This document shows positions 3,126 to 42,359 of a DNA stretch of 64,000 nucleotides, one piece after another. This DNA is from Candidatus Magasanikiibacteriota bacterium (GTDB lineage: Bacteria > Patescibacteriota > Patescibacteriia > Magasanikbacterales > GWA2-37-8). The stretch is from assembly GCA_963802255.1 (NCBI GenBank), contig CAWDHY010000001.1, forward strand, positions 171,842 to 235,841, read 5' to 3'. A program made the translations under genes and the position numbers. The stretch's first letter is position 1. Each line of letters begins with the position of its first letter. The notes beneath the pieces are model-generated. The model saw only the letters and a list, made by a program, of their open reading frames with translations, was not told where the DNA came from and searched no databases.

Positions 3126-3148
3126 AATAGAAAAATTAAACAATAAAT

Positions 3149-3169: not shown

Positions 3170-3220
3170 GTTATTTGAAATAAACCTGCTATGCTATCCG
3201 TATTAAAGGTATAACCATTT

Positions 3221-14532: not shown

Positions 14533-15633
14533 TTAACCAGTCCAATAATAAGCGAGAATGCTAAAATCGACTAAATTTATCAATTGGTCTCCATTCAGTT
14601 GGCTTTCTTCAATTGAGAAAAACGAGGGGAGAATGTCCCTTTTATACCAATAAGCGGCAATAGAAAAATCCACCAGGTTTACGCGACAATCGCCGTTTAG
14701 GTCGCCTTTTTTTGGACATTTCCCATCAGGTTCTTTAATAATTGTTTTTTCGCCAACCGTAAATGTTATTGGTGAGGTATATTCACTTTGCATTACCCCA
14801 AGAATTGCCCTTGCTTTTATTGAATATTGTCCTAAAAGCATTGTCGCTGTATCTATCGAAAGCTGGTAATTACCATTAGCTGAAGCTGTTACGTGATAGA
14901 TTGATTCGTTACCGTCGTCTCTTATTAAACTGAGAGTAATTTCCGCGCCAGGGGCTGCTTCACCGAATATTGCGATTGGTTCGCCCTGCTTTACTTCACG
15001 CTTGTCAGCGTCAATTGTAGGTGAAAGAAGAATATTACTGACGGTAACTGACTGACCTTGTTGGCTAATAGATGTATTAGTGATAAATGAGGCCGATCGG
15101 CGTCCGGCAGAGTCTACATAATAAACGGTGAAATGATAATTGCCGGTTGATAAGTTACCGACAATAATATTGAAATCGCCGAGTGCGGTAGAAGTGCCAT
15201 TTGAAACTAAAATACCGTCTTTTAATATTTTTATTGACGCGTATGGCGCAGCTTTACCGGTAAATGATACTTGAGACAAAACAACTGTTCCACCGCCTCC
15301 ACCACCACCGCCTCCACCACTACAGGCGGCACAAAGAGCTCCGCCACAGTCAATACCAGTTTCGTCAAAATCTTTTATGCCGTTTGTACAGTGACTGGCG
15401 CACGCCGGGCAAGTTGCACCGCCGCAGTCAATTCCTGTTTCGTCAAAATTTTTGATACTGTCAACGCAATGATCGTAGGGGACGGATGAACTGACTGAAA
15501 CATTTAATTTTTGCCCTGCGTCAGCCGTAAAAACCGCAAGAGGCAACAATAAAAACACAAGCCCCATGAAAATAATTTTTGGGGCTCGCGTCAAAAAGTT
15601 AGGTAAATTTCGTTTCAGAAAATCGCTCCGCAT
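14533..15633 (-). CDS. secreted dockerin-domain protein with duplicated Cys-rich motif and poly-Gly linker
   Basis: 366 aa. Signal peptide. Two copies of DFDETGIDCGGA(T/L)C(P/A)AC. A G10 run. Two C-terminal type-I dockerin F-hand repeats: GDLNGDCRVNLVDFSIAAYWY and QLNGDQLINLVDFSILAYYW. Confidence 0.6.
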   Translation of the reverse strand: MRSDFLKRNLPNFLTRAPKIIFMGLVFLLLPLAVFTADAGQKLNVSVSSSVPYDHCVDSIKNFDETGIDCGGATCPACASHCTNGIKDFDETGIDCGGALCAACSGGGGGGGGGGTVVLSQVSFTGKAAPYASIKILKDGILVSNGTSTALGDFNIIVGNLSTGNYHFTVYYVDSAGRRSASFITNTSISQQGQSVTVSNILLSPTIDADKREVKQGEPIAIFGEAAPGAEITLSLIRDDGNESIYHVTASANGNYQLSIDTATMLLGQYSIKARAILGVMQSEYTSPITFTVGEKTIIKEPDGKCPKKGDLNGDCRVNLVDFSIAAYWYKRDILPSFFSIEESQLNGDQLINLVDFSILAYYWTG

Positions 15634-16614: not shown

Positions 16615-17259
16615 TTACGGATTGGTAATCGCGGTAAAGGTAACTGTACCAGTATACACACCGGATTGTTGCGTACCAGGAGCATCAGCTCTAAATCCAT
16701 AAGCAACAGTCTGAGCGCCTCCTACATAAGTGGCGATGGTGGCAATTTGTTGATCAGTTGTTGGGAAACCGGCATACAGAGCATTTGGCGCTGTATCATC
16801 AGACCCCCACCAGGAAGAATTATAAAGTGCCACATCAGTACCTGTTTGGTATACCCGAAATGATAAATTAGCGCCTACTTCTGGTGAAGTGGTTGCGTTC
16901 GGCGAGGAATAATTCCATCCTGTGGCGTCTGGAAAAGCAACATCCGGTGTTGAAGTGCCGTTGAGATTCAGTGTCGAACCAGCGTCATCGCGCTTTACCT
17001 GTAAATTCCACCCGCTGTAATCATTGGTGGTAACAGATAAAGAAGTATTACCGGTAATTGGCGTACCTGGAACTAAAGTACCAAGGTCCACTGTGGTAGT
17101 CGCGAGTGTCAACGTGATCGTTGAAGTCACGGTTAAAATAATTGTCTGAGTGTCTGAATCACTAGCCGCATTTGCCGGTTTTAGGTTGACTAAACCCAGT
17201 ATACCGACCGACGCGCAAAACATAGCGATCAGAATTACGAATGAGATGGTCCTCCTCAT
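16615..17259 (-). CDS. secreted Thr/Gly-rich protein (paralog of 17430-18149)
   Basis: 214 aa. Signal peptide. C-terminal ~110 aa clearly homologous to the divergently encoded neighbour (LNGTSTPDVAFPD..LSFRV.Q.GT..Y.S.WWG..DT....YAGFPT..QQI). Confidence 0.55.
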   Translation of the reverse strand: MRRTISFVILIAMFCASVGILGLVNLKPANAASDSDTQTIILTVTSTITLTLATTTVDLGTLVPGTPITGNTSLSVTTNDYSGWNLQVKRDDAGSTLNLNGTSTPDVAFPDATGWNYSSPNATTSPEVGANLSFRVYQTGTDVALYNSSWWGSDDTAPNALYAGFPTTDQQIATIATYVGGAQTVAYGFRADAPGTQQSGVYTGTVTFTAITNP

Positions 17260-17429: not shown

Positions 17430-18149
17430 ATGAAATTTTTCCGAAAAATTATTATTGTCGCCTTTTTTTCACTAATTTTTGGTGCTGTTGTTTTTGCGGC
17501 CACTGAAGACCGCGGGTCATACAACGCCACATATCATGATTCCACATCTACGAATTTTGATTTAAAAGGCGGAGTAGGCGACCCGGCGGTTGGACGTTCA
17601 GCCAGTACAAATTATATTATTGATCACGGCTTGGTAATTGAGTTTGGCACAATGACTATTACAATTGCGACCAGTGTAAATTTTGGGGTTATTATTCCTT
17701 TGATTCCAGCAGAGGTTACATCAACCGTAAGTGTCAACATGGTGGGGGCGTTTAATGGATATAATTTATTAGTGAACAGGGATAATAGTACATCAACTAT
17801 CGATCTGAATGGGACATCAACGCCGGATGTTGCTTTTCCGGATGAAATCGCATGGAATCCCAGCGGCTCAGGAAACGCCACGGCAACGCCGGGGGATAAT
17901 TTGAGTTTCCGAGTTCAACAAGTTGGAACGAACTCAAATTATGATAGCACTTGGTGGGGAGCAAGCGACACTTCAGGAACGGCAAAATATGCCGGGTTTC
18001 CCACGGTGATGCAACAAATAATGAATTGTACAATGTGTAATTTTGGCTCTACTGACACAATTATTGGTTATCGCGCCTCAGCTCCGGTTTCGCAAACAAC
18101 AGGATTATATTACGGACCGATCACTGTCACAGCTTTGGTAAATCCGTAA
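17430..18149 (+). CDS. secreted Thr/Gly-rich protein (paralog of 16615-17259)
   Basis: 239 aa. Signal peptide. Shares the NGTSTPDVAFPD..WWG..YAGFPT..QQI C-terminal domain with the divergent neighbour. Confidence 0.55.
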   Translation: MKFFRKIIIVAFFSLIFGAVVFAATEDRGSYNATYHDSTSTNFDLKGGVGDPAVGRSASTNYIIDHGLVIEFGTMTITIATSVNFGVIIPLIPAEVTSTVSVNMVGAFNGYNLLVNRDNSTSTIDLNGTSTPDVAFPDEIAWNPSGSGNATATPGDNLSFRVQQVGTNSNYDSTWWGASDTSGTAKYAGFPTVMQQIMNCTMCNFGSTDTIIGYRASAPVSQTTGLYYGPITVTALVNP

Positions 18150-18169
18150 TTAAAAAAATTTTATTTATA

Positions 18170-18199
18170 AGCTGTGGAAGGTATATCCACAGCTTTTTC
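18170..18199 (+). terminator. Rho-independent terminator
   Basis: agctgtgg-aaggtatat-ccacagct followed by ttttt. Followed by gctataat, a -10-like box for the giant gene. Confidence 0.5.
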
Positions 18200-18253
18200 T
18201 TTTGGGCTAATAATTGTTTAAAAAATGTGCTATAATAATAATGTAATACATTT

Positions 18254-21200
18254 ATGATTTGGAGGGAAAAAAAACAGGAAAGTAATTTTTGGGTTATGAA
18301 AAAGACGGCAAAAAATATCATGCTCGGTGTGTTTATTTTGCTTGTTTTTTTGTTGGCCGATTTAGCAAGTGCAATTCCAAATGCTATAAATTATCAGGCG
18401 CGTCTGCGCGATAATTTAGGCGCTCCAATTATTGCGTCAACCACTGTTCAATTTTCAATTTACAATAATCTAACCGGCGGTGCGCCAACTGACACTCCGG
18501 GACAAAGCGGTCCATTGCTTTGGACGGAAACATATGATCAGGCGAGTGGCGCTTGCGTTAAGGTATCTCCTGACGCAAATGGCTATTTTACTTTAACTCT
18601 TGGCGAGTGCGTTGCTTTCCCCGGTTATTTGGATTTTTCCAGTGGCACATATTATTTGGGTGTAAAGATTGATACCGATGCCGAAGCTTCGCCTCGGGTA
18701 AAATTAAATTCTCATCCATACGCTTTAAACTCTGACCGTGTAGACGGGTTTCACGCTACTTCCACCGCCACAGCCAATCAGTTGTTGGCGCTGGGAAATG
18801 ATTTAAGTTTTAATATTGGCACCGGTTCATATTCCGGAGCCGGAATTAGTCTCACGTCATCAACAGCCACGTCAAGCATAAGTGGCAATCTTTCGGTCAT
18901 TGGCAATTCCACTTTTGCCACCGCGACAATAGATAATCTAATCTTAACCAATCCGTTAACTTTAACAAATTTAAACTTCACAAATGCTACTGGCACAAAT
19001 TTATCACTTACTAATTTGACCGTTAGCGGTACTTCTACATTGGGCATTATTAATGCCGGTACATGGCAGGGGAGTATTATTGACCCGGCATATGGTGGTA
19101 CTGGTCAAGACACTTCCGGTTGGAGTGGATTTGTAAAATTATCAGCCGGAGTTTGGAGCACCTCAACTATCAGTTTAACTTCAGATGTTTCCGGAATATT
19201 ACCGATTGCCAACGGGGGTACCAATGCTTCATCTTTTTCGCCATATCAATTTTTATGGTTTGATGGTTCGCAGTTAACTGCCAGCGGATTTACCAGCTCA
19301 AGCTTCCTAACTTATGGCACGGACGATTGGGTGGATATCACCGGCGATACAATGACTGGAGCCTTGATAATAAATAACGACTTATCCGTAACAGGTACTT
19401 CTACATTGGCCACTACATCAGCAAGTAATTTGCGTTTAGGCGACGCCTATTTATTTCCAACAGATGCCCCTATTTTAGTTTCATATAAGCAATACACTGA
19501 CCTTACAAATTTTGAATTTTTTCCGGCACATGCCTTTATCGTTGATTTGTTGCCGACAGCTGACTCGTCATCAACCATTAATTCATTGATTTCTTTAACA
19601 ACCAATGAAAATAGTACCACCAGTTTTGATTTGATCGCCGGAACGTTGTCGCAAGTAATACACAATGGTTCAGGGGTAGTTGGCGCGGCTGTCGGTTCTT
19701 TGTCAGTCGCAGAATTAGCCAGCGCAACAGGCAGTATAAATTTTGCCGTAGGAGTTGCCGGGCAAGTGAACAATGGAATTGAGAACTCAACTTATTCCGG
19801 TACAATAAATATGGCGGCCGGTGTTTTGGCCATGATTGAAAATGGTATAGGTGGCGGTACTATTGGCAATGCTGCCGGGTTGATGACAAACATAACTATT
19901 GATGATGGTTTTATCAACAGTGCTTATGGCGCGAGGATAAATAATCCGACAAGTAATAGCGCTTCAGGAACTATTGGGGAGTTGTATGGCTTATATATAG
20001 AAGAACAAAATTTTGCCACTACTTCCAATTATAATATTTATTCGGGTGGTGCCAGTTCCACCAATTATTTTGGCGGGCGCGTTGGTATTGGTACAACGAC
20101 GCCGAGTTACAATTTGCATGTAGTTCATAATGAAAATTACAACGGACCGCTTGTAACTTTTGAAAATATAAATAACGGAGCAAGCTCAACTGAGCTGATG
20201 CAATTTAAAGTTGGCAATTATGGCGGTGGTATTGGTGTTGCTGGTGAAAATTTTAGTGATTGGGGGTTAACCAACATAGCCGGTTACACTGCTTTAGTAT
20301 CAGGGTTCCCCGGCGCCAGCGGCAACGGGCTTGCTTTACTTGCCGGCCAATCAGGTAATATCATTTTTTACTCTGGTGGCTATGGTCCACCGACAATGGA
20401 CACTGAAAGAATGCGTATTGAAAATGACGGACGAGTTGCCATTGGCACTTCATCAACATTTGAAATGCTTACTGTCGCCGGTGGTATTAATATCGGCGCT
20501 ACTACCACTCCGACTTCTACAGCCGGCACAATTGCTTTCAATGGCACTGACTTTATCGGCTACACCGGTTCGAGTTGGGTGTCTTTAACTGCCGGAATTG
20601 GCGGGGTGACGGGTTCGGGTTCAATCGGCCAACTTTCTTTCTGGGACAGTGCTTCATCAATTACTGGAACCACATCATTATTTTGGGATGATGCTAATGG
20701 TTATTTGGGTATTGGAACCAGTACCCCAGCATCAATTTTTTACGCAGTTGAAGACAATGATTCATGGACAATGGCTCAAGTGCACAATTTAAATACCGGC
20801 CCCAGTTCAACTGCATCTTTAATAGTGCGGGTGGGAGAAGATTGGGGAGGCGGGCTATTCCAAGCGTCACCAAATTTTAGCGATTATGGTTTAGCAAATC
20901 TGGCGGGATATACGGTTTTGTTATCGGGTGCTCCGGATATTCAGTCAAATGGTTTGGCATTAGCTGCCACCGGCGATGGTAATATGATTTTTTATGCTGG
21001 CGGTAATGGACCGCCGACAGCAGATGTTGAACGGATGCGCATAGAATCAAATGGTTTTGTGGGCATTGGAACATCTACACCGAATTATTTATTGGATATC
21101 TTTTCAACTTCTTCAACTGTTGATTTATTTCGTGCTTCTAATGGTAGTACCGGTTTATTTACTATAAATAATAATGGACGAGTTGGTATTGGAACGGATG

Positions 21201-24200
21201 TGTTGACCGGCAACAATCGTCTGCAAATAAATGTTGGTTCCAGCACGCCAACCATTTCGGCCGTGTCTTCTGTTTTTGAAATTGATTCTGAAAGCGGTGA
21301 TTTTTCTGATTTTAATTTCCGGCTTTCCACGACTGGAACAGGTTCCTATCCGGCAATGTATTTTTCTCGTTCCCGCGGTACGCTTGCAGTTCCGGAAATT
21401 TCACAAAATAATGATATTCTTGGTGAAAATATTTTCCAAGGATATTTTGGTACCGATTTTCAAAAGGCCGCAACGATAAGAGCAACTGTTGATGGTAACC
21501 CCACCACCTGGGCGGTGCCGGGTAAACTTTCATTCTTTACAGCTCCGGATATCGCAACTGGTACAGCGCCTTTAGAGCGCATGACTATTAGAAATACCGG
21601 TGATATTGGCATCGGTACCACAACACCGCTTGCCAAATTAGATATTTATGGTGATTTGATTTTATCCGGATCGGACCGGTATTTAAATTTTAATAATGCC
21701 ACCGGGTCGGATGGTTATGGTCTTAGAGACAATGGAGGCCGAATACAATTTAAACACGAAAGCGGATCATGGGAAGATTTATACGGTAAAATTAATCACA
21801 TAATAAATGTAGCAAAAAGCGGGGGAGATTTTAGTGATATCGGCGAGGCAATAGCATTTGCCAACTCATCAACATATGATGTGATTGTCAATATTTATCC
21901 CGGCATTTATGAAGTATCCTCAACATTAGAAATTACCAGCTCGTATATCAAAGGTATCAGAGGTATGTCGCTTAGTGGTGTCATACTTACGCCAACGGAT
22001 GCTTTGGTGACCGCGGCAGAACCGGTTTTTGATATTAATTTCACTTCTAGTTCATCAAATTTTTCCATGTCCGAGTTTACCATAGACGGTAGCGGTGCGT
22101 CCGGATTTAAAGATACGACGGGTTGTGACGCCATAAACATTTCAAGCGAAGGTACTGATTGGCTTGAATTAGAAAAATTATATATTTCAGATGTTAACCG
22201 CGGTATTGATTTACAAGTGGCCAATTTGGCGGATATCTATCATGTAGATTTTTACAATATTGGTAATGCCGGCGTATATATAGATAATGGCGGAATATTG
22301 CAGGTGGAAAATTCATATATGGAAGAATCGGACACCTATTATGCTTATATTGACAGTACAACAGGAGCCTCCGAATTTTATATGGTCGGCAGTGAGTTTG
22401 GTTCTTACAATGATTCGGGAACAGGTCTGTATATGGCCGGCGATAATTCATATTCGGAAATTCGTTATTCCAATATGTGGGGCCTGGATAATAATATTGT
22501 GGTAAATGATGCTTCAACTGTTAAAGTGACTGCCAGCTACCTGCAGAAAGCGCTAACTTATAATGTTGTCCAAAATGGCGATTCAACCGTTAATATTTCA
22601 TCAAGCGACGGAGCTTTTTCCAGCACTGATATCAGTATAAACAATGCGGACAATGTATATTTTTATGCTTTAGCAGAAGAAGAAAGCACGGTGCTTTTTG
22701 GCAGACACGACAATATTGATCAGGATATTTTGAAAGTTGATACCGGCCAGGCGCTTTTGCCAAAATTATCGTATCGGAAAGATTATTACGGAAACAGCGG
22801 CTTGTTATTTATCAATGATAACCCGGGCGAAGAAACAATGTTTGGCGTACAGGCGACCAGCAGTTGGGCGAGGTTATCCGCTGTTAGTGGGGATCGTGGT
22901 ACTGGTGCGGCTTTGCTTCTTTATTCTGATACCGAAGATTTTGGCACAACTTCCAGTTTGCGTGGATGGGCCATGTCCAGAAACGGCGCAGATGCAAATT
23001 TAATATTTTCATTTGACAACAGTGATACAGGGGATAGCAAATCAGTTGTTGAAGATAATCGCGTAATGGAGCTGGATGGTTTTAATACACAAATGCTGGT
23101 TAAAGGAGGCGCGATATTTAATACTTCAAGCGGTGCGTTTGATTTTATTGTCCACGGCGATAGTGATGATAATTTATTATTTGTCCAAGGAAGCTCAGAT
23201 AACATTGGTATTGGTACTTCAACGCCCGGATATAAACTTACAGTTGATGGTGATGTGAATATTACCGGTGCATATCGTATTAATGGCGTGTCACTAACCA
23301 CCTTGAATCCGGGGACGCTTACAGGACAGTTTGCTTATTGGGATGGCTCTGCGTGGTCGCCGACAAGTTCAGTGTTTATATCTTCTGATGGTAAAATCGG
23401 TATTGGTACAACTACTCCGTTAAACGCATTAAGCGTATCGGGTGGTATATATGTTGCGAGCGGCACACCTGCGAATACTGATTTTGCTCTTTATAATAAT
23501 AATGGTCAGCTATATTGGAATGGGTTGCCTGTTATGGGTGGAAGTACAAGCACATATATTATTGATTCTGACGGTGATACCAGAGTAATGACAGAGAATT
23601 CACCGGATGAAGATTATATCCGATTTGAAACTGCAGGCGTGCAAAGGATGGTTATTGATAATAACGGCCTAATTGCCATTAATACAACTACACAAGATGG
23701 TAGAGCAATGTATATTTATGGTGATATAAACAGTGATGTAACTTTAGCACTCCATAATAATAATGCCGGTGTTTCTTCAACAGCAGAATTGGCATTATAT
23801 AATGATCTGGGGAAAATTGGCGGATTAGCCGGGTTAAGTTCAGGGTGGAACGACGGTCTTCCCGGAATTTCCGGAAGCTTAGCTTTATATTCAGTGAGTG
23901 ATTTGTTATTATCCACCATGGGTGCGGGTGGTGATATTATTTTTGATGTTGATCCGAGCGATGAATTCAGGAGCTTAACGATTGCCGGTGTTGGCGGAGC
24001 TAACGCCGGATATGTTGGTATTGCAACTTCATCGCCCCTTGCTCCATTGGATGTTTATGGAAACATGATTTTGTCCGGAGATAATCGCTATATTAATTTC
24101 GGCACAACTACCGGAGTGGCTGGATATGGTTTTCGCGATAATAATGGTGTAATGGAGCTCCGGAATATTAATAATAATCTAAATGTTTGGTCGGAAATAG

Positions 24201-27200
24201 TTGTTGGCGACGCCCTTCTGGAAGCTAATGTCATTTATGTTTCTGGAGAAAGCGGTAATGATGTTTTTAGCGGTATGTCCCCAGCAAAAGCCAAAAAAAC
24301 AATTGGTGCGGCTATTACGGCGGCGGCTGCTTCAACCACGGCTAACAGTACATATTTAGTCAAAGTTGCACCGGGTACATATAATGAAAATATATCCATG
24401 GCAGATTATGTTCGTATTGAGGGGTCTGGCCGTAATACTGTCGTGAGCGGAACAATTACTTCAAATGTAAATACCAGCACTGTTTTAGAAAAAATTCGTG
24501 TTGTAAGTACAAACGATTACGCGATAAAATTGACTGGGGCTGGTCGTACAAATTTGAATAATATTGTCGTGGAGGCAAACTATAATAATGACGCGGCAGT
24601 GCAGGCGGCAGTTTATCAGGAAAAAGGTACGCTCTATGCGATGGGCGGTACCAGCCAATATAAATTAACACGTTCTAACGATGCGGCAGGTACAAAAATA
24701 AACACCTTATTTTATTTAAGCGGTAGCAATCTTATCCGCTCAAATATTTTGAATCTTGAAGCACAAGTTGTAACCTATGACACTACAGATGATTTATCTT
24801 ATATTTATACGGACAATAGTAATGCAAGTAGTGTCGCAACAGTAAAAGACGCAGTAGTTAGTTTTTCCGTCTATGGCAATCCTCCTGCAAATTTTATCAA
24901 ATACATTTATCATAGTGGCGCTTCTTTAAATAGTTATATTGATGCTAGTTTCTTAACTGCAGTCGCAATTTTCCCTGGTACGGTAAATTTTGTTCCGGCC
25001 TACATTGCTAATTCCGGCTCAACTTCCACCGTTAAAATTACCAACTCCACATTCAATTGGGCTGGTGCCGGTATTTCAGAAAATAGTGTTTATTTATCCG
25101 CTGCGATTACAGACAAAGATCAGGTTTCTTTAGTTGAAAATAGTTTTGGCACAGTGAGCGATATTTTCCCGGTGGCTTATACTACAGACGGATCTTCCGG
25201 TACAATAAGGTATTTTATTGAAAATGGTTTGGGGAATATCCAAAATACCGCTTTCACCACATATAATGGTAGTTTTGGTATTGGCACATCCACGCCTTAC
25301 GATCTTTTAGAAATTTGGGGAGTGGATCTTACATCAAGCCCGACATCAAGTCGGAACTATATTACTGTGGTGGCAAATGGCAACGGAGAAACCGGTAATT
25401 ATTTTCGTCGCGTAAATTCCGGCGGTTATGATAATGGCTGGAGTTGGTATATGCCAACGAGCAGTATGGACTTTCGTTTATGGGATGACTCGGTTGGGGC
25501 AGAAGGGGATGATGTTTTGACTGTGCAGGCCGGCACCGGCAATATTGGTATTGGCACGGCGCTGTATGATCCTCTTAACAAGCTTCATGTTGATGGCGGA
25601 ATATATTTGGGTGATACAGCGTCAGCGACATCAACTTATTCTTTATATAATATTGGCGGAGCATTGTATTGGAATGGAAATTTATTGATGAGTGCCGGCG
25701 GTTCTGCTGCAAATTGGATATTGGCCAGCCACAATGGATTGAATCTTACAACCTCAACAAGCATTCCTGTTTGGTTCCAAGATAGTGTTTATGCCAGTTC
25801 GTCATTATATGTTGATGGAGGATCATACTTGGCTACAACAACTATTTCTAATGCGACAGTCGGTTACCTGGTAATAAATAATACTGTAACTACAACTAAT
25901 CTTGTAGCGACCGGCAATATCACTTTGGGTGGTGTAGCCAGAAATACTTGGCCGTCCGGAGGCGGAGGCGATTCCAATTGGGCGACAACTTCGGCCAGTG
26001 TACTTTATCCCTCTTTGACCCCTCCTTATGCGGTGGTTATTGGAGCAAGTGTGACATCATCGGATGTAATTTTTGAGGTGGCTGGTGATTCGTATATGAG
26101 TGGTGATTTGAATGTAGGTGGTAGCCTAACAATTGATGGGAATTTTCAGGCTGACTATTTTACGGCAGTATCAACCACCGCAATTTCTTATCTTGGCGGT
26201 GGAATGGTGCTTGGCGACCCGAATGCTACCGGTATAACCGGTTATGAAAGAATAATTTTGAGCGATGATATTGGAGCTTTTTCTGACTTCTCATTTAAAG
26301 TTGCAGGCAATGGTTACCCGGTATTTAATCTGGGATCTTCCGGAGGCACAACTGCAGCGCCATCATTAACCGGCAATAATAACAATCTTGGCGGACTGGA
26401 TTTTTATGGTTATGATGGGGCGGCATGGCAAAAGGCAGGTGGTATCATTGGACAAGCTGACGGAACACCGGGGTTAAACAATATGCCAGGGAAAATTGTA
26501 TTTAGTACAACTCCGACTGGATCGGCAACCCCCGCAGACAGAATGGTAATTGATAGTAGAGGCTTTGTCGGGATAGGTACAACCACTCCGAGTGCTCCGT
26601 TGCACGTAGTCACCGCCACATCAGGCCCGGCCATGACAATACTTCAAAAAACAATTGCCGGCGCTACTAATTTAAATTTTGTCACGAATAATAATAAATA
26701 TTGGCAATTATCCAAACGTGATGCGACACAAGACGATAAGTTTATTTTCTATTATGTAAATGATAGCGGACTATTCACAAATATTTTGACTTTGGGGGCT
26801 ACCGGAACAGTGGGTATTAACAATGAAAATCCAAACGCCATGTTAACAATTTCCGGCACATCCACCTATCCGCTTTTGAATATTATGACCAGCTCTTCAG
26901 CCACTGGAATGTATATTAGTAATATTGGTAATGTTGGTATCGGAACAACAGACCCGAATTATCATAAATTAAGAGTTTATGCAGATGATAGCGATGTTTC
27001 GGCTGAAGTTAAGACAGCGTCATCGTCAAAAGTAGCCCTGTTTAATCTTAAGGCCGGTGGTGATACCAATGTTTTGCAACTCGGTTATTATGGATCCACT
27101 ACCCCTGGTTTTGCCGGCATCCCGCCGGACAGCGCCGTGTTTGACGCGGTCGCGCCTGGAGGAGCCTATATTATTAATGAAGCAAGCGGAGCCCCAATCG

Positions 27201-29791
27201 TCTTTATGACCGATGGCTGGCAGGCATCGAACGAAAGGATGAGAATCACAAGTGATGGTTTTGTTGGAATTGGCACAAAAACTCCTTCCACAACCTTGTC
27301 TGTAAATGGGACTTCAACAATGAAAAATGTTGTGCCGGCTTCAAGCTTAGCTTATGATTTGGGTAATTTTGAACGTAATTGGAATAGAGTATGGGCTACT
27401 TTATATAATATAAACAATCAGAATTCTTTGGCCGCGATTGAGTCCGTTGCGTCATATGGACCGACATCAACATCTATCAATGGCACTCTTTCTATCACAG
27501 ATCCGGATAATCCAAATCGCACCGGCCGTTATATGGATTCTTATAATATTGCCACATTGTTCCCTGGCATTCCTAGCGGTTCTTCTGTAACAGTATCATT
27601 AACTTCAGGTGTTTTTGATACATATTTACAAATTGTTTCTGATACCGGGTCAGTTACGTATAATGATGATGATGGCGGTTCCGGAACAAATTCATATTTG
27701 CAATTTACGTATGACGCCAGCTCAACCTATAGCATAGTCGCCACAAGTTATTCAAGTGGAGCAACCGGAGCATATAACCTTGCGGTGGATGTGGTAAATG
27801 CAGCTTTGGATGCGGGCATAGCTTTTTACGATGCAGTAAATGGAGGAGGAAACAACTTGCTTACCGTATTGAACAGCGGGAATGTCGGTATTGGAACTTC
27901 CACTCCGTCATCGGTGCTCACTTTGAGCGCAAATAAGGAAGACATGATTATGGTCAGTAATAGTTCAACTAATAATTCCTTATTGGTTGGTAAATATTTG
28001 TCCAAGAATTTTGGTATGTCTCTTGAGACCGGTGCGCAAATTCAATATAACTCATATTTCGGCGAAGAGTTTATGCGAAACCGGACCAGCCTTACTGCTG
28101 ATACTTTGAACGGTTGGGGAGATTTCCAGCAATTTACCACTGATGAAAATACTGCTTGTACATGGAATATAGTTAATGATGTAGTGAATGGTATTAGTCA
28201 ACAGCTAACCGGAGCGGGGAGTTCATGTTTGCTTTATCATGGCCAGGCGCTTGCAAATTCTCACTTGGTTTTTGACGCTGATAATTTACCGGTAATTTTG
28301 ATGAAATTGTACCCATCAGCTGATTCTGCGACGGCCCGTTTATGGGCAGGTATCAGCGACTTGGCACAAGCGCAAAATTCTGACCCAACAAATGGAATAT
28401 ATTTCACAAATAACACGGGCACAGGAGATTGGCGTGGTGTTACAAGGCGTGGTGGAACATCAACGAATGTTGAGTGTACCGGCCAGACAATAAATAATAC
28501 TGTATTTGCCATCGCAAAAATTGAAGTTGTCTCTTCAACCGGAGCCGGTGGAGGGTCGGTTAAATTCTATATTGATAATGATACGACAGATGGTATAAAT
28601 TGGACTTATTGTGGAGAATCAACAACTAATATCCCGACTGTTGGCCTGACTTCAATGCTCATGAACTATTCAACTGCGGCGCACTCGTTGTATGTTGATT
28701 ATTTCCGTATCTGGCAGGATGATTCTTCACCTGAAATTCCATCAGAGCCGGAAGAGATGAAAGAAATTCCGGAGATCTTGTCATTGGATGAAAGAATTGC
28801 ATTATTGGAGAGTGCTTTTGCATCCACAACCGCAGATTTGACCGAGATGAAGACCACGCTTGATAACCAAGGTATATTAGCAGGTGAACAAGCTGAACAA
28901 ATAGCTGAAATTATTGATTCGGTAAATATTTTAAATGTTTCATTAGATGAGACGAAGTCCATGATTGCCGCTATAAATGACAGGGTAATAGTTTTGGAAG
29001 ATACGGCGATTTCAACAGAGGCTTCATTTGCTGATCTTAATTTAGCCATTACTGATATTAATGTCAGATTAGAAGCTTTTGCGTCATCTACTGTAGGTAT
29101 GGATTTTAGCAGTGGTGTTTTTGGTGACCTTTTTGCCAATGCCCTCATTGTTGATAGTCTTGCGATATTTAACGGGCCGGTGAATATGAATAAGCACGTT
29201 ACCCTTGGGGAAGATACGGTCGGTCAGGCTCAGATTCTCGCAGGACACAGCTCAACCACTGTAACATTTGCTGAGCCATACGAAATATTGCCGATTATTT
29301 CAGTGACACCGCTTGATTTTGACGGAAAATGGAAACTCTCTGAAGTGACAACTTCCAGCTTTAAGATTTCAATAAATGAAATTCAGTATATTGATATCAC
29401 ATTTAATTGGCAGGCATTTGGCGCTTCACCAGAATCAAAAATATTTGTTTCGGACGGGACATCGCGATTAATTGGTCTGGTGATTGTCTATAGCCCACCG
29501 GCAGAGGAAACTCCGGTTGAAGAACCGGTCGTTGAACCACCGGCAGAGGAAACTCCGGTTGAAGAACCGGTCGTTGAACCACCGGCAGAGGAAACTCCGG
29601 TTGAAGAACCGGTCGTTGAACCACCGGCAGAGGAAACTCCGGTTGAAGAACCGGTCGTTGAACCACCGGCAGAGGAAACTCCGGTTGAAGAACCGGTCGT
29701 TGAACCACCGGCAGAGGAAACTCCGGTTGAAGAACCGGTCGTTGAACCACCGGCAGAGGAAACTCCGGTTGAAGGTGGTGGAGCGGAATAA
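18254..29791 (+). CDS. giant secreted repeat protein (3845 aa) with tail-fibre-like G[IV]GT[ST][ST]P repeats and beta-helix-like modules
   Basis: Uninterrupted 11.5-kb ORF. Probable start at 18296 (MKKTAKNIMLGVFILLVFLLADLASA, a signal peptide with ASA cleavage). About 15 copies of the motif xVGIGTTTP/IGIGTSTP. Two pectate-lyase-like beta-helix starts (SGGDFSDIGEAIAFANSSTYDVIVNIYPGIYEV and AKKTIGAAI..YLVKVAPGTYNENI). An internally duplicated ~50-aa module (GIGTTTPLAKLDIYGDLILSGSDRYLNFNN.. and GIATSSPLAPLDVYGNMILSGDNRYINFGT..). C-terminal (PAEETPVEEPVVEP)x6. Confidence 0.85.
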   Translation: MIWREKKQESNFWVMKKTAKNIMLGVFILLVFLLADLASAIPNAINYQARLRDNLGAPIIASTTVQFSIYNNLTGGAPTDTPGQSGPLLWTETYDQASGACVKVSPDANGYFTLTLGECVAFPGYLDFSSGTYYLGVKIDTDAEASPRVKLNSHPYALNSDRVDGFHATSTATANQLLALGNDLSFNIGTGSYSGAGISLTSSTATSSISGNLSVIGNSTFATATIDNLILTNPLTLTNLNFTNATGTNLSLTNLTVSGTSTLGIINAGTWQGSIIDPAYGGTGQDTSGWSGFVKLSAGVWSTSTISLTSDVSGILPIANGGTNASSFSPYQFLWFDGSQLTASGFTSSSFLTYGTDDWVDITGDTMTGALIINNDLSVTGTSTLATTSASNLRLGDAYLFPTDAPILVSYKQYTDLTNFEFFPAHAFIVDLLPTADSSSTINSLISLTTNENSTTSFDLIAGTLSQVIHNGSGVVGAAVGSLSVAELASATGSINFAVGVAGQVNNGIENSTYSGTINMAAGVLAMIENGIGGGTIGNAAGLMTNITIDDGFINSAYGARINNPTSNSASGTIGELYGLYIEEQNFATTSNYNIYSGGASSTNYFGGRVGIGTTTPSYNLHVVHNENYNGPLVTFENINNGASSTELMQFKVGNYGGGIGVAGENFSDWGLTNIAGYTALVSGFPGASGNGLALLAGQSGNIIFYSGGYGPPTMDTERMRIENDGRVAIGTSSTFEMLTVAGGINIGATTTPTSTAGTIAFNGTDFIGYTGSSWVSLTAGIGGVTGSGSIGQLSFWDSASSITGTTSLFWDDANGYLGIGTSTPASIFYAVEDNDSWTMAQVHNLNTGPSSTASLIVRVGEDWGGGLFQASPNFSDYGLANLAGYTVLLSGAPDIQSNGLALAATGDGNMIFYAGGNGPPTADVERMRIESNGFVGIGTSTPNYLLDIFSTSSTVDLFRASNGSTGLFTINNNGRVGIGTDVLTGNNRLQINVGSSTPTISAVSSVFEIDSESGDFSDFNFRLSTTGTGSYPAMYFSRSRGTLAVPEISQNNDILGENIFQGYFGTDFQKAATIRATVDGNPTTWAVPGKLSFFTAPDIATGTAPLERMTIRNTGDIGIGTTTPLAKLDIYGDLILSGSDRYLNFNNATGSDGYGLRDNGGRIQFKHESGSWEDLYGKINHIINVAKSGGDFSDIGEAIAFANSSTYDVIVNIYPGIYEVSSTLEITSSYIKGIRGMSLSGVILTPTDALVTAAEPVFDINFTSSSSNFSMSEFTIDGSGASGFKDTTGCDAINISSEGTDWLELEKLYISDVNRGIDLQVANLADIYHVDFYNIGNAGVYIDNGGILQVENSYMEESDTYYAYIDSTTGASEFYMVGSEFGSYNDSGTGLYMAGDNSYSEIRYSNMWGLDNNIVVNDASTVKVTASYLQKALTYNVVQNGDSTVNISSSDGAFSSTDISINNADNVYFYALAEEESTVLFGRHDNIDQDILKVDTGQALLPKLSYRKDYYGNSGLLFINDNPGEETMFGVQATSSWARLSAVSGDRGTGAALLLYSDTEDFGTTSSLRGWAMSRNGADANLIFSFDNSDTGDSKSVVEDNRVMELDGFNTQMLVKGGAIFNTSSGAFDFIVHGDSDDNLLFVQGSSDNIGIGTSTPGYKLTVDGDVNITGAYRINGVSLTTLNPGTLTGQFAYWDGSAWSPTSSVFISSDGKIGIGTTTPLNALSVSGGIYVASGTPANTDFALYNNNGQLYWNGLPVMGGSTSTYIIDSDGDTRVMTENSPDEDYIRFETAGVQRMVIDNNGLIAINTTTQDGRAMYIYGDINSDVTLALHNNNAGVSSTAELALYNDLGKIGGLAGLSSGWNDGLPGISGSLALYSVSDLLLSTMGAGGDIIFDVDPSDEFRSLTIAGVGGANAGYVGIATSSPLAPLDVYGNMILSGDNRYINFGTTTGVAGYGFRDNNGVMELRNINNNLNVWSEIVVGDALLEANVIYVSGESGNDVFSGMSPAKAKKTIGAAITAAAASTTANSTYLVKVAPGTYNENISMADYVRIEGSGRNTVVSGTITSNVNTSTVLEKIRVVSTNDYAIKLTGAGRTNLNNIVVEANYNNDAAVQAAVYQEKGTLYAMGGTSQYKLTRSNDAAGTKINTLFYLSGSNLIRSNILNLEAQVVTYDTTDDLSYIYTDNSNASSVATVKDAVVSFSVYGNPPANFIKYIYHSGASLNSYIDASFLTAVAIFPGTVNFVPAYIANSGSTSTVKITNSTFNWAGAGISENSVYLSAAITDKDQVSLVENSFGTVSDIFPVAYTTDGSSGTIRYFIENGLGNIQNTAFTTYNGSFGIGTSTPYDLLEIWGVDLTSSPTSSRNYITVVANGNGETGNYFRRVNSGGYDNGWSWYMPTSSMDFRLWDDSVGAEGDDVLTVQAGTGNIGIGTALYDPLNKLHVDGGIYLGDTASATSTYSLYNIGGALYWNGNLLMSAGGSAANWILASHNGLNLTTSTSIPVWFQDSVYASSSLYVDGGSYLATTTISNATVGYLVINNTVTTTNLVATGNITLGGVARNTWPSGGGGDSNWATTSASVLYPSLTPPYAVVIGASVTSSDVIFEVAGDSYMSGDLNVGGSLTIDGNFQADYFTAVSTTAISYLGGGMVLGDPNATGITGYERIILSDDIGAFSDFSFKVAGNGYPVFNLGSSGGTTAAPSLTGNNNNLGGLDFYGYDGAAWQKAGGIIGQADGTPGLNNMPGKIVFSTTPTGSATPADRMVIDSRGFVGIGTTTPSAPLHVVTATSGPAMTILQKTIAGATNLNFVTNNNKYWQLSKRDATQDDKFIFYYVNDSGLFTNILTLGATGTVGINNENPNAMLTISGTSTYPLLNIMTSSSATGMYISNIGNVGIGTTDPNYHKLRVYADDSDVSAEVKTASSSKVALFNLKAGGDTNVLQLGYYGSTTPGFAGIPPDSAVFDAVAPGGAYIINEASGAPIVFMTDGWQASNERMRITSDGFVGIGTKTPSTTLSVNGTSTMKNVVPASSLAYDLGNFERNWNRVWATLYNINNQNSLAAIESVASYGPTSTSINGTLSITDPDNPNRTGRYMDSYNIATLFPGIPSGSSVTVSLTSGVFDTYLQIVSDTGSVTYNDDDGGSGTNSYLQFTYDASSTYSIVATSYSSGATGAYNLAVDVVNAALDAGIAFYDAVNGGGNNLLTVLNSGNVGIGTSTPSSVLTLSANKEDMIMVSNSSTNNSLLVGKYLSKNFGMSLETGAQIQYNSYFGEEFMRNRTSLTADTLNGWGDFQQFTTDENTACTWNIVNDVVNGISQQLTGAGSSCLLYHGQALANSHLVFDADNLPVILMKLYPSADSATARLWAGISDLAQAQNSDPTNGIYFTNNTGTGDWRGVTRRGGTSTNVECTGQTINNTVFAIAKIEVVSSTGAGGGSVKFYIDNDTTDGINWTYCGESTTNIPTVGLTSMLMNYSTAAHSLYVDYFRIWQDDSSPEIPSEPEEMKEIPEILSLDERIALLESAFASTTADLTEMKTTLDNQGILAGEQAEQIAEIIDSVNILNVSLDETKSMIAAINDRVIVLEDTAISTEASFADLNLAITDINVRLEAFASSTVGMDFSSGVFGDLFANALIVDSLAIFNGPVNMNKHVTLGEDTVGQAQILAGHSSTTVTFAEPYEILPIISVTPLDFDGKWKLSEVTTSSFKISINEIQYIDITFNWQAFGASPESKIFVSDGTSRLIGLVIVYSPPAEETPVEEPVVEPPAEETPVEEPVVEPPAEETPVEEPVVEPPAEETPVEEPVVEPPAEETPVEEPVVEPPAEETPVEEPVVEPPAEETPVEGGGAE
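29495..29773 (+). repeat. perfect 42-bp tandem repeat (~6.6 copies), in-frame within the 3' end of the giant gene
   Basis: Unit ccaccggcagaggaaactccggttgaagaaccggtcgttgaa repeated with no mismatches. Encodes PAEETPVEEPVVEP repeats. Confidence 0.9.
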
Positions 29792-29881
29792 ATTTTTCCT
29801 TTAAAAGATAATGTATTTAAATATTTTGATATTCCCGATTTTTTTGTTATACTAATTACTATATAAATTAATATTTTTATT

Positions 29882-30394
29882 ATGCCAATAAGAAAAGTAT
29901 CAGCCGTAAGTGACGTTCAGAATGCACAACCATCTCATCGCGAACCCGCTAAAAAGGAAGAAAACAGCGCTGGAACGGCTGCCATGGTAATCGTGATTAT
30001 TATTGCCGTATTAGCAGTAGCCGGTTGTGTGCTGATGTATTTAAAATATTCAATTGCTCAAAAGAAAATTAATGAGATGGCCACCCCGCAAGGTCAGCAA
30101 GAGATGGCAAAAAAGGAAGTGCAGGATATATTGAAAAAAATTGGCGCGCATATTGTAATACCAACCGATGAAGAGCCGACAATAGCTACGGTCACGGATG
30201 CCGATGCCTTAAAGAAAGAACAGCCTTTTTATCGCGATGCGCAAAATGGCGATAAGGTAATTATCTTTATGCAGGCAAAAAAAGCAATTATATATAATGA
30301 AGGGAAAGATATCCTTGTGAATGTCGGGCCGATATTTGTAAACGAAACTGAAACTCCCGCGGCAAACGTGGAAGATATCAGTATTGATGAATGA
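29882..30394 (+). CDS. hypothetical single-pass membrane protein
   Basis: 170 aa. Charged N-terminus, one TM (AMVIVIIIAVLAVAGCVLMYL), acidic C-terminal domain. Confidence 0.5.
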   Translation: MPIRKVSAVSDVQNAQPSHREPAKKEENSAGTAAMVIVIIIAVLAVAGCVLMYLKYSIAQKKINEMATPQGQQEMAKKEVQDILKKIGAHIVIPTDEEPTIATVTDADALKKEQPFYRDAQNGDKVIIFMQAKKAIIYNEGKDILVNVGPIFVNETETPAANVEDISIDE

Positions 30395-30402
30395 GCTGGG
30401 TA

Positions 30403-30430
30403 TTGACAGTCTTAAGTGGAATAGTATAAA
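30403..30430 (+). promoter_or_regulatory. sigma70-like promoter of the thrS leader (TTGACA-16-TATAAA)
   Basis: ttgaca at 30403-30408, tataaa at 30425-30430. Sits immediately after the stop of the upstream gene. Confidence 0.4.
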
Positions 30431-30436
30431 TTATTA

Positions 30437-30662
30437 AAGTCGCGTTCGGATGAGGACCAGCCCAGTTAATTCCGGTATTGAAACGGAATTGAACATGGTA
30501 CCACCCTCAGAGCGGCTACAAATTGAATTCACCCCGTTAAATACGGCCGAAGGCAGTCCTCTCTTTGCGAGGAATTTAATGGGGTAAAGATAAACATTCG
30601 GGTGGAACCGTCTTATGAAAAATAGGACCCCGATATCTATAATTTAGGTATCGGGGTTTTTT
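30437..30662 (+). promoter_or_regulatory. T-box-like transcription-attenuation leader upstream of thrS
   Basis: ~285-nt leader between promoter and thrS ATG. T-box-like element AUUCGGGUGGAACCGUC (30595-30612; compare consensus AGGGUGGNACCGCG). An upstream segment GGUACCACCC (~30513-30522) is complementary to it (alternative pairing). ACC (Thr codon) lies in a candidate specifier region. Ends in a strong intrinsic terminator. Not validated by covariance model. Confidence 0.45.
30627..30662 (+). terminator. attenuator terminator hairpin preceding thrS
   Basis: accccgata-(13 nt loop)-tatcgggg followed by tttttt, 60 nt upstream of the thrS start. Confidence 0.6.
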
Positions 30663-30723
30663 ATAAATATTTATATATTTGACTGGATATATTTAAATCA
30701 ATTAATATTTTATAAATTTCTTT

Positions 30724-32505
30724 ATGAAGAATATTGAGATAATGCGCCATTCCTGTGCGCACATCATTGCCGCGGCAGTTAAATCGCTTTATCCGGAAGC
30801 TAAATTTGGCGTCGGTCCGGTGGTAGAAAACGGGTTTTATTATGACATAGATTTTCCAGAACCGATCGGTGAGGCGGAACTTGAAAATATTGAAATAAAG
30901 GCGCGTGAGCTGGTTACTCAGGGCATAAAATTTGAAAGAGAGGAGTTAGGGATAGACGAGGCTATAAAACTATTTAAGAAATTAAATCAGGATTATAAAG
31001 TTGAATTATTAAATGATTTAAAAAGCAAGGGCACAACCAGAGTGGACGATAAAGAGGAAATAGAATTATCCGGAGATACTGTTTCAGTATATAGAACCGG
31101 AGAATTTATTGATTTGTGCCGCGGGCCGCATTTGGACTCGGGTAAAGAGATTGGAGTATTTAAATTAACAAAATTAGCCGGTGCCTACTGGAGAGGGAAA
31201 AATGAGAATCCCCAGCTTCAAAGAATTTACGGGGTTTGTTTTGAAAAGCAAAAAGAACTGGATGATTATCTGGCAATGATAGCGGAAGCTGAGAAGCGAG
31301 ACCACCGAAAAATTGGCGCTGAACAAAAATTATTTTTTATTGACGACTCTGTGGGAAAAGGGCTGATCATGTGGCAACCCAATGGAACAATAATCAAAAA
31401 TGAGGTGGAAAAATTGGCTATTGAGAAAGAGCGCGAGGCAGGATATGCGCGCGTTTCAACTCCTCATATGGCAAAGGAAGAACTATTTTTAACTTCCGGC
31501 CATCTGCCGTACTACAAAGACAGTATGTACCCGTCTATGGTTATGGATGACGGAACATATTATTTGAAGGCGATGAACTGCCCGCACCATCATATTATAT
31601 TCCGTCATGAGATGCGTTCATACCGCGATTTGCCTGTGCGTATCGCTGAATATGGGACATGTTACCGCAATGAATTGTCGGGTACATTAGCCGGGCTTCT
31701 TCGCGTACGCGGCCTCAACATGAATGACGCACATATTTATTGCCGAAAAGACCAGATTAAGCAGGAGTTTAAAGGTGTGCTTGATTTAACTATTGAATAC
31801 TATAAAATTTTTGGCTTGAAAGATTACTGGTTCAGATTGTCAAAATGGAGCCCGAAACATTTGGATAAGTATGTTAATGAGCCTGATAATTGGGAATATA
31901 GCCAGCAGGTAATCCGGGAAGTACTGGAGGAAAGTGGAGTCAAGTTTGAAGAGGTTGATGATGAAGCGGCTTTTTATGGCCCTAAAGTGGATACACAGTT
32001 TCGCTCAGTTATCGGCCGCGAGGAATCCATGTCGACAATACAGCTGGATTTTGTAGCCAAAGAAAGGTTTAAACTTGTGTATACCGATGAAACCGGAAAG
32101 GATAATAACGAGGTATTTGTCATACACCGGGCGCCTCTTTCAACTCATGAACGATTTGTTGCATTTTTGATTGAACATTATGCCGGTGTTTGGCCGGTTT
32201 GGCTCGCACCTGTACAGGTGAGATTTATTCCGGTTTCGGAGAAGCATATGGATGGCGCGGCTGCATTGAACAAGGAACTATTTGATATGGGAATTAGGGC
32301 TGACATAGACGGTGCCAACGAGACTCTTGGTAACCGTGTGCGAAAGGCCGTTTCGGATAAGGTCCCATACATTGTGGTCATCGGGGATAAGGAACTTGAT
32401 GGAGAGGATTGGGTGATACGTATTCGCGGACAGGAAAAGCAGGAGAAAATGAGCAAACACAAATTTATTGAACGGATAGAGAGAGAAATAATTGAAAGAC
32501 AGTAG
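30724..32505 (+). CDS. thrS: threonine--tRNA ligase
   Basis: 593 aa. Begins with the ThrRS editing/second additional domain (RHSCAHIIAAAVKSLYPEAKFGVGPVVENGFYYD), class II catalytic core, C-terminal anticodon-binding domain (ERFVAFLIEHYAGVWPVWLAP). No N-terminal TGS domain. Confidence 0.95.
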   Translation: MKNIEIMRHSCAHIIAAAVKSLYPEAKFGVGPVVENGFYYDIDFPEPIGEAELENIEIKARELVTQGIKFEREELGIDEAIKLFKKLNQDYKVELLNDLKSKGTTRVDDKEEIELSGDTVSVYRTGEFIDLCRGPHLDSGKEIGVFKLTKLAGAYWRGKNENPQLQRIYGVCFEKQKELDDYLAMIAEAEKRDHRKIGAEQKLFFIDDSVGKGLIMWQPNGTIIKNEVEKLAIEKEREAGYARVSTPHMAKEELFLTSGHLPYYKDSMYPSMVMDDGTYYLKAMNCPHHHIIFRHEMRSYRDLPVRIAEYGTCYRNELSGTLAGLLRVRGLNMNDAHIYCRKDQIKQEFKGVLDLTIEYYKIFGLKDYWFRLSKWSPKHLDKYVNEPDNWEYSQQVIREVLEESGVKFEEVDDEAAFYGPKVDTQFRSVIGREESMSTIQLDFVAKERFKLVYTDETGKDNNEVFVIHRAPLSTHERFVAFLIEHYAGVWPVWLAPVQVRFIPVSEKHMDGAAALNKELFDMGIRADIDGANETLGNRVRKAVSDKVPYIVVIGDKELDGEDWVIRIRGQEKQEKMSKHKFIERIEREIIERQ

Positions 32506-39766: not shown

Positions 39767-39799
39767 AAAAAAATTGATGCTATTAATTAATCAATAAAC

Positions 39800-42334: not shown

Positions 42335-42359
42335 GGTAAATTAGATATATTTACCTTAA

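Follow-up and report, generated by a model that had tools for sequence, protein, structure and literature searches.

A 64,000-nucleotide stretch of contig CAWDHY010000001.1 from a Candidatus Magasanikiibacteriota bacterium (assembly GCA_963802255.1, positions 171,842 to 235,841; hereafter the window) harbors a giant 11.5-kb gene. We consider it rather probable that its product is a Sec-exported, very long surface adhesin of the mosaic adhesive trimer (MAT)/tail-fibre type, most likely homotrimeric and tipped by lectin domains. While the domain content of the protein is observed, its function and orientation are what we infer from that content, and an adhesin or host-attachment fibre, as proposed in a first-pass annotation of this DNA, is the best-supported function. 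The fold families involved are familiar; new is a giant form from the Candidate Phyla Radiation (CPR) that places tailspike domains internally, ends in a fixed C-terminal unit (C-unit) of the double-lectin kind and comes with a conserved partner gene. A search of the literature found no description of this CPR fibre family.

Assignment to the MAT type draws on the presence of a signal peptide, a capping-loop motif, modules homologous to solved structures and a C-terminal adhesive-type domain of the non-S74 kind. MAT fibres, with which the predator Bdellovibrio bacteriovorus seizes its prey, carry a capping loop with the consensus V-G-G/N-pi-x-x-P-x-x-x-L on trimeric beta-helical modules (Caulton et al. 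2024, PMC10769870), and the motif VGIGTxTPxxxL from the window fits this consensus. The core G[IV][GA]T is present in 14 copies (13 GIGT and one GIAT, with an additional AIGT near aa 727), compared to 1.6 copies expected from protein shuffling and a maximum of six in 2,000 shuffles. The 12-residue form [VI]GI[GA]TxxPxxxL, also searched as the looser pattern [VIL]G[IV][GAN][TI]xx[PTLD]xxxL, occurs nine times versus 0.013 expected. The count of about 15 repeats in the first-pass annotation thus stands, but the strict pattern given for them, [RN][IV]GIGT[ST]TP, matches only three times, and the core copies lie 41 to 626 aa apart rather than at the suggested intervals of 100 to 250 aa. A sequence search of the PDB matched aa 1011–1140 to Bd2439 (8OL4/8ONF, E 4.5e-10) and aa 2691–2797 to Bd1334 (8OML and 8ON4, E 3.4e-06 and 5.7e-04). 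These MAT fibres, labeled "cell wall surface anchor family proteins", were the only meaningful matches, and the link to this family had escaped the first-pass annotation. The S74 subclass of MATs was rejected, as Pfam gave no Peptidase_S74 (PF13884) match in the giant protein and its single SDxxxK motif, at aa 2677, lies within a shaft module and not at the C-terminus. The shaft as a whole is rich in Gly, Ser, Thr and Asn and punctuated by the GIGT loops, and its proximal region is common to the matching proteins P0004–P0007. Shaft segments modeled as monomers scored below 50 in the predicted local distance difference test (pLDDT), which is what an intertwined obligate oligomer would be expected to give.

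The N-terminal end also points to an exported fibre. Starting from the alternative codon M15 (nt 18296), the protein opens with a textbook signal peptide (MKKTAKNIMLGVFILLVFLLADLASA, followed by IPN), and aa 17–45 form the sole hydrophobic stretch of the entire protein. Together with the invariant cysteine pairs, this fits a Sec-exported, extracellular product and bears out its earlier description as secreted. In MAT proteins, a beta-rich, conserved domain ~130 aa in length, the N-domain, directly follows the signal peptide and is proposed to be cell-proximal (Caulton et al. 2024, PMC10769870). An N-domain of ~135 aa occupies the same position here. Of the 29 proteins matched by its profile hidden Markov model (HMM), about 27 carry the domain at the N-terminus or close to it, among them Parcubacteria-type giants of 6,031 aa (P0041) and 5,709 aa (P0043). 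These two, larger still than the window protein, share GIGT shaft modules as well. The same HMM matches the N-terminus of an 818-aa Flavobacteriales "tail fiber domain-containing protein" with a Peptidase_S74 domain, and MATs from the FCB group are among those listed by Caulton et al. Homology to the Bdellovibrio MAT N-domain is therefore supported only indirectly, and by its position the domain is a candidate cell-proximal anchor.

The C-unit, comprising a PPC-like (pre-peptidase C-terminal type) domain, a concanavalin A (ConA)-like domain, a helical stalk and an H-lectin-like domain and followed by a Pro/Glu-rich tail, was recognized largely through homologues. The PPC-like domain aligns with tandem arrays in P0026–P0032, with full-sequence E values down to 2e-95 (P0026, summed over six repeats). 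Of the proteins carrying such domains, PF04151 is annotated in P0026, P0031, P0032 and P0035, and Peptidase_S8 in P0026 and P0029; the window copy has no Pfam match of its own and a poor structural model. For the ConA-like domain, the 27-bit cut-off of PF22237 (SO2946-like_C) is exceeded by two homologues, L007 with 31.0 bits and L008 with 30.3 bits, and the window copy gives no match. Its model (pLDDT 57–91) was placed by Foldseek with ERGIC-53, VIP36, legume lectins, calreticulin, the Hc part of botulinum neurotoxin and PL7 lyases, with a probability of 1.0 for L-type lectins. The last domain scores 16.3 bits (E 0.011) against PF09458 (H_lectin), below the 24-bit gathering cut-off, whereas the homologues L015 (30.6), L016 (26.4) and L010 (24.2) pass it, and H_lectin is the top match in seven of nine aligned copies. 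H-type lectins form trimers. Profiles of the ConA-like and last domains returned only chance matches among PDB sequences, and the C-terminal model has a mean pLDDT of 47, leaving the PPC-like part and the last domain without structural confirmation. The stalk, its position conserved in P0024, P0025, P0028 and P0036–39, is modeled as probable coiled coil and is a candidate oligomerization element. The first-pass annotation had missed the PPC-like domain and the lectin-type end, and the Pro/Glu C-terminus it described was confirmed and is encoded by a tandem array, perfect at the DNA level (42 bp x 6.7, 100% identity, nt 29495–29774). This identity suggests recent expansion of the array, whose copy number is likely variable, or uncertain in the assembly. 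Orthologues likewise end in P/E-rich tails of differing sequence.

Directly downstream of the giant gene lies a second conserved element, a small membrane-protein gene that the first-pass annotation had not recorded. Its product is 37% identical to that of the gene following P0025 and belongs to a family with no Pfam or PHROG match. A member of this family follows the C-unit gene directly in L004, L005, L016, L001-3, L010, L006, L008, L018 and L013 and lies further downstream in L015; in most loci that extend far enough it comes directly after the C-unit gene, sometimes in two copies. The C-unit itself, of which the stretch from the ConA-like to the H-lectin-like domain recurs across CPR lineages, was found in 15 loci of a species-representative genome set, 14 of which are CPR-labeled, and its homologues carry the labels Patescibacteria, Parcubacteria, Saccharibacteria, Dojkabacteria, Woykebacteria and Gracilibacteria. 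One locus with both C-unit and partner gene (L005, CAYOXC010000003.1) comes from a metagenome-assembled genome (MAG) labeled "uncultured Gammaproteobacteria", which is possibly mis-binned or mislabeled.

On the basis of these features, a mechanism can be proposed. After signal-peptide cleavage, the N-domain of ~135 aa would tether the fibre to the cell surface, the role suggested for this domain in MATs, and intertwined beta-modules, every one capped by a VGIGTxTPxxxL loop, would form a shaft that points outward. Scaled from Bd2133, for which 150 Å are reported for ~370 aa (Caulton et al. 2024, PMC10769870), the fibre would have a length in the order of 100 nm, about the scale of a CPR cell itself. 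Two tailspike-type beta-helices within the shaft could bind surface polysaccharide, which the first of them might also cut, and the distal glycan-recognition unit (PPC-like, ConA-like, stalk and H-lectin-like) would engage a host or partner cell at its envelope. Gain, loss and duplication of the middle modules may diversify reach and specificity with both ends held constant. The C-terminus, emerging last from Sec, may nucleate oligomerization. One possible role of the downstream membrane protein is to assist the assembly of this end while tethered to the membrane, in the manner of the chaperones that phages encode right behind their fibre genes; another is that of an anchor.

Orientation is the main uncertainty in this proposal, and several observations weigh against a lectin-tipped host adhesin. 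The C-unit is the most conserved part of the protein across CPR lineages, and in phage fibres and MATs it is usually the distal tip that varies most. The window copies of the H-lectin, ConA-like and PPC-like domains all fall under Pfam thresholds, so that these calls rest on homologues and on the low-scoring C-terminal model, and no catalytic residues could be assigned in either beta-helix. With a conserved C-unit, an adjacent membrane-protein gene and a Pro/Glu tail, the C-terminus could equally be cell-proximal. The C-unit (lectins, Pro/Glu tail and membrane partner) would then bind the wall or membrane of the bacterium itself, and the fibre would be a structural component of the CPR envelope, serving as its coat, spacer or matrix, or would point its N-terminal end outward. 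Conservation of the C-unit and partner gene from Saccharibacteria to Magasanikbacteria agrees with such an inverted fibre, as does the concentration of variability in the middle of the protein rather than at its C-terminus. Pro-rich C-terminal regions also span the wall in Gram-positive surface proteins. However, the giant protein contains no LPxTG motif, C-terminal transmembrane segment or known wall-binding domain, its N-domain sits at the position of the cell-proximal domain of MATs, and non-S74 MATs as a rule bear tips of the lectin type at the C-terminus (Caulton et al. 2024, PMC10769870). We therefore regard the inverted orientation as unlikely and retain the lectin-tipped adhesin. A sortase-anchored adhesin of the Gram-positive type was rejected separately, as neither an LP.[TSA]G motif nor a C-terminal hydrophobic segment or membrane anchor was found in the protein.

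The two segments described earlier as resembling beta-helix caps extend to complete right-handed parallel beta-helices, both folded confidently in segment-wise structure prediction. Foldseek against the PDB related them, at a probability of 0.9–1.0, to PL6 alginate lyases, tailspikes, pectin methylesterases and AlgE4, with CBA120 TSP2, the K2-2 and P22 tailspikes and RbmB among the named neighbors. Among viral models (BFVD), the neighbors were beta-helix tail fibres or spikes, Mtd_N proteins and S74 proteins. A whole-protein scan matched none of the Pfam families that had been suggested (Pectate_lyase_3, Beta_helix, Big and DUF1565), so the helix assignment rests on predicted structure. A word-index search with helix 1 alone found nothing, and its relatives were recovered by an exhaustive HMMER search. 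Proteins that contain sequence relatives of the helices also carry Collagen, BclA_C/C1q or Mtd_N domains; the collagen and C1q/BclA_C domains of these homologues, which are trimer-forming, and the predicted helical stalk lend indirect support to a homotrimer. In the models, tailspike beta-helices thus appear to be used as internal shaft modules. The beta-rich domain that follows helix 1 recurs two to four times in other giant proteins (P0046, P0048, P0049, P0057, P0064 and P0069).

The same folds could indicate that the protein is mainly an enzyme scaffold. Its helices would then, like those of tailspikes, depolymerize polysaccharide as lyases, hydrolases or esterases, the lectins would serve as carbohydrate-binding modules, and the fibre would degrade capsule, exopolysaccharide or wall polymers for access or nutrition. 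The PL6 lyases, CBA120 TSP2, the K2-2 tailspike, pectin methylesterases and RbmB among the structural neighbors are consistent with this, PL7 lyases and glucanases share the ConA-like fold, and D1192, D1278 and E1381 of helix 1 are conserved among homologues. However, no CAZy-type Pfam family matches by sequence, and many fibres use beta-helices as purely structural or binding modules. Alignment of helix 2 with its homologues revealed no conserved acidic residue, which makes a structural or binding role more likely than a catalytic one for this helix. We consider a mainly enzymatic protein quite improbable; it would in any case be compatible with the adhesin proposed above and not exclusive of it.

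The description of the protein as tail-fibre-like was confirmed by PHROG tail-fibre families matching the shaft (2.6e-40 and 6.7e-27) and by tblastn matches of aa 2645–3049 to cyanophage and pelagiphage tail fibres (26–31% identity), in addition to the MAT fibres in the PDB. These similarities could also be explained by a prophage or tailocin tail-fibre gene. Such an origin was rejected as very unlikely: among ten neighboring proteins none matched any PHROG family, the flanking genes are cellular (threonyl-tRNA synthetase (ThrRS), FtsH, a MiaB-like enzyme, RNase P RNA and a PilB-like ATPase), and the same chromosomal synteny is kept in a genome with a ThrRS only 54% identical. The protein also carries a Sec signal peptide, whereas virion fibres are assembled in the cytoplasm without one.

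The nearest relatives of the giant protein are labeled Candidatus Magasanikbacteria. Proteins P0025 and P0028 (~1,100 aa) have both ends of the giant protein with a short shaft between them. Among longer forms, L004 has a single copy of two tandem 208-aa modules, P0036 lacks aa ~392–903, P0037 and P0038 lack most of aa 300–1115 and 2632–3198, and P0039 lacks beta-helix 2. P0039 also shows a second ConA-like domain near its N-terminus (aa 80–439), and a related ORF of at least 3,424 aa was observed in Woykebacteria (L011). Several block boundaries between orthologues fall within 1–13 aa of a GIGT loop (aa 1115–1118, 2339 and 3199–3201); the motif therefore marks module junctions. By these alignments orthologues differ as mosaics in their middle parts and the ends are constant, a feature that had gone unnoticed in the first-pass annotation. 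The ~50-aa duplication noted there is real (aa 1114–1168 and 1917–1971, the neck modules; E 9e-18) but not almost verbatim, at 52.7% identity over 55 aa. Three larger duplications had been overlooked, namely aa 608–741 and 816–949 (50% identical), aa 1015–1131 and 2674–2785 (44%) and aa 1693–1772 and 2407–2492 (42%). Across the locus (nt 18254–32505 versus L004 594–14946), the giant protein is 65–70% identical to its L004 counterpart, and the upstream 239-aa protein is 68% identical to one in the same position (L004 594–1313), as opposed to 54% for the adjacent ThrRS. The fibre locus is thus more conserved than ThrRS, indicating strong constraint on it or its transfer.

The uninterrupted ORF described earlier was confirmed and represents a genuine gene. 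An intact orthologue of 3,662 aa is present in L004, a Candidatus Magasanikbacteria MAG in which the order of the 239-aa gene, giant gene, small transmembrane gene and ThrRS is kept, and four further intact orthologues of metagenomic origin measure 3,364, 2,879, 2,767 and 3,502 aa. Intact orthologues in independent assemblies argue against an assembly artefact or pseudogene. In a DNA self-comparison of the gene, only motif-coding 31-mers recurred (65–77% identity) apart from the 42-bp tail array; no other long repeats were found within the gene, and mis-assembly by internal repeats is therefore unlikely. Accordingly, although the gene is very long and the copy number of its perfect 3' tandem repeat may be mis-assembled, an assembly artefact or a decaying pseudogene staying open by chance is hardly credible given an open frame of 11.5 kb, the collinear blocks of five intact and independent orthologues, the lack of long internal repeats and two domains modeled at pLDDT above 90. 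The gene has a GC content of 0.424, compared to 0.415 for the whole window. A terminator-like hairpin with a T-run (nt 18169..18195, + strand, consensus match) closes the upstream 239-aa gene, and an extended -10-like box, TGCTATAAT, was spotted by eye as a consensus match at nt 18229–18237, 5' of the giant ORF; with these two elements the giant gene is probably transcribed from its own start. Exact database look-up with both start codons returned no record of the protein, a whole-protein NCBIfam scan gave no match, and a whole-protein Pfam scan at E up to 1 gave nothing except a chance-level Dynamitin match (E 0.3).

Table 1. Features of the giant fibre gene and its surroundings. Nucleotide positions are those of the window unless a locus is named; aa, residues of the giant protein.
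Feature	aa	Nucleotides	Strand	Remarks
Giant fibre gene		18254–29791	+	Single ORF, 3,845 codons plus stop, 0 internal stops, 11.5 kb
Start region and Sec-type signal peptide	1–40	18254..18373	+	Predicted cleavage after ASA, aa 40
N-terminal beta-rich domain	41–175	18374..18778	+	One Cys pair; homologue alignment
Proximal shaft	176–600	18779..20053	+	Thr/Ser/Asn/Gly-rich; "LPIANGGTN"-type tail-fibre repeats; no GIGT
Tandem pair of ~135-aa shaft modules	608–741 and 816–949	20075..21100	+	Each flanked by GIGT loops
MAT-type shaft module, copy 1	1011–1140	21284..21673	+	Ends in ERMTIRNTGDIGIGTTTPLAKLDIYG; homologous to solved Bd2439 fibre
Neck module, copy 1	1114–1168	21593..21757	+	GIGT...LSGSDRYLNF..GYGLRDNGG; directly before beta-helix 1
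Right-handed parallel beta-helix 1	1179–1449	21788..22600	+	Tailspike/pectin-lyase fold; model pLDDT >90
Beta-rich domain after helix 1	1450–1640	22601..23173	+	pLDDT 60–75
Shaft	1641–1916	23174..24001	+	Two GIGT loops; holds module aa 1693–1772
Neck module, copy 2	1917–1971	24002..24166	+	Directly before beta-helix 2
Right-handed parallel beta-helix 2	1989–2334	24218..25255	+	Model pLDDT >90
Distal shaft	2335–3054	25256..27415	+	Five GIGT loops; phrog_9942 match
MAT-type shaft module, copy 2	2674–2797	26273–26644	+	Inside distal shaft
PPC-like beta-sandwich	3055–3200	27416..27853	+	Alignment to tandem arrays of P0026–P0032
ConA-like lectin/glucanase jelly roll	3225–3492	27926..28729	+	Four invariant Cys; conserved across CPR lineages
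Predicted alpha-helical stalk	3511–3610	28784..29083	+	Three long helices; low-confidence model
Small beta domain, H-type-lectin-like	3611–3745	29084..29488	+	PF09458 H_lectin
Pro/Glu-rich tail and stop		29489..29791	+	PPAEETPVEEPVVE x 6.7; 42-bp tandem array
Conserved partner gene		29882..30394	+	170-aa single-pass membrane protein; C-terminal domain ~110 aa; 90 nt downstream of giant gene
Partner family in other loci		L001 13357–14368; L004 12421–12924; L005 3466–4020; L010 3615–4112; L016 8173–8700		Proteins of 150–170 aa
PilB-like T2SSE ATPase		10114–11856	-	Opposite strand to giant gene
Cohesin-domain protein with C-terminal membrane anchor, near Big_6/CarboxypepD_reg protein		12800–13648 and 14533–15633	-	
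Divergent paralogous secreted proteins		16615–17259 and 17430–18149	- and +	48% identical over 160 aa; no family match
DUF11 protein (634 aa), DUF4012 protein (844 aa), GT4 glycosyltransferase cluster		37862–43523	-	
tRNA-Ile		59909–59982	-	Anticodon TAT (UAU), unusual in bacteria

The surroundings of the gene are listed in Table 1. Upstream and on the opposite strand lies a run of surface genes encoding the PilB-like ATPase, the cohesin and Big_6 proteins and the two paralogous secreted proteins. The Big_6/CarboxypepD_reg protein ends in two dockerin-like "DLNGDxxVNLVDFS" repeats and, judged by sequence, possibly forms a cohesin–dockerin surface pair with the cohesin protein beside the ATPase. 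The paralogous pair and an adjoining 318-aa, C-terminally anchored protein presumably resemble the WxL-type surface-protein loci of Gram-positive bacteria. The cluster at nt 37862–43523 is probably another envelope or glycan locus. The tRNA-Ile further along has an anticodon different from that of most bacteria, in which AUA is decoded by a CAU tRNA modified with lysidine.

Beyond type IV pili and a few "adhesins" from transposon sequencing in Saccharibacteria, little is understood of how ultrasmall CPR/Patescibacteria locate their hosts and stay attached to them. The locus provides a concrete, widespread and testable candidate for attachment to other cells, akin to the fibres that Bdellovibrio uses on prey. 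As C-unit homologues occur in the now genetically tractable Saccharibacteria, the attachment idea can be tested directly. Tentatively, the fibre gene and the downstream membrane-protein gene might form a host-recognition apparatus common to the CPR, in Magasanikbacteria, Saccharibacteria, Dojkabacteria, Woykebacteria, Gracilibacteria and Parcubacteria, in which a MAT-like fibre with a fixed double-lectin end carries a swappable middle, tailspike-like beta-helices included, that sets which host envelopes an episymbiont reaches, binds or breaches, with the GIGT-coding segments as swap junctions. With this locus, the MAT family would gain a lineage that is monoderm-like and not predatory, and proteins of double the largest size listed so far.

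Several known systems resemble the fibre in part. At its C-terminal end, the last domain has a family-level Pfam match to H-type lectins (Helix pomatia agglutinin type, PF09458), with the window copy below threshold, and the ConA-like domain a fold-level match to L-type lectins such as ERGIC-53 and VIP36, the former of which likewise has its lectin head on a coiled-coil stalk; unlike either, these domains occur here in the context of a bacterial fibre. The giant proteins of Omnitrophota (West-Roberts et al. 2023 preprint) are likewise very long and extracellular, encoded by ultrasmall, probably host-dependent bacteria and proposed to act on the surfaces of other cells. However, their domain content is unrelated, with SecA-like, dockerin-type and antiparallel beta-helix modules that are absent from the giant protein, and the largest are ~10 times longer.

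Phage fibres and tailspikes (T5 pb1, K1F S74-type, CBA120 TSP2, P22, K2-2, cyanophage and pelagiphage) share with the giant protein PHROG families, 26–31% identity in the case of cyanophage fibres, and right-handed beta-helix domains of the tailspike fold. They also share a small gene directly 3', in the position of tail-fibre assembly chaperones. Unlike them, the giant protein is encoded by a cellular gene with no phage neighbors, has a Sec signal peptide and no S74 intramolecular chaperone, and is several times longer than typical phage fibres.

The closest resemblance is to the MAT fibres Bd2439, Bd1334, Bd2133 and Bd3182, in capping loops, sequence homology, mosaic exchange of modules and the lectin or beta-sandwich ends of the non-S74 class, and in being made by bacteria that live on other cells (here probably in a host-dependent manner). 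MATs have been listed from Oligoflexia, PVC, Alpha- and Deltaproteobacteria, the FCB group and OP3, none from the CPR, and the largest listed has 1,915 aa (Caulton et al. 2024, PMC10769870) compared to 3,845 aa here. Whereas MAT fibres have one beta-helix at the tip, the giant protein has two internal ones. The CPR envelope is monoderm-like and not, as in Bdellovibrio, Gram-negative. The giant protein further departs from MATs in its fixed end of PPC-like, ConA-like, helical stalk and H-lectin-like parts with a Pro/Glu tail, and in having, instead of an S74 chaperone, a conserved membrane-protein partner encoded downstream.

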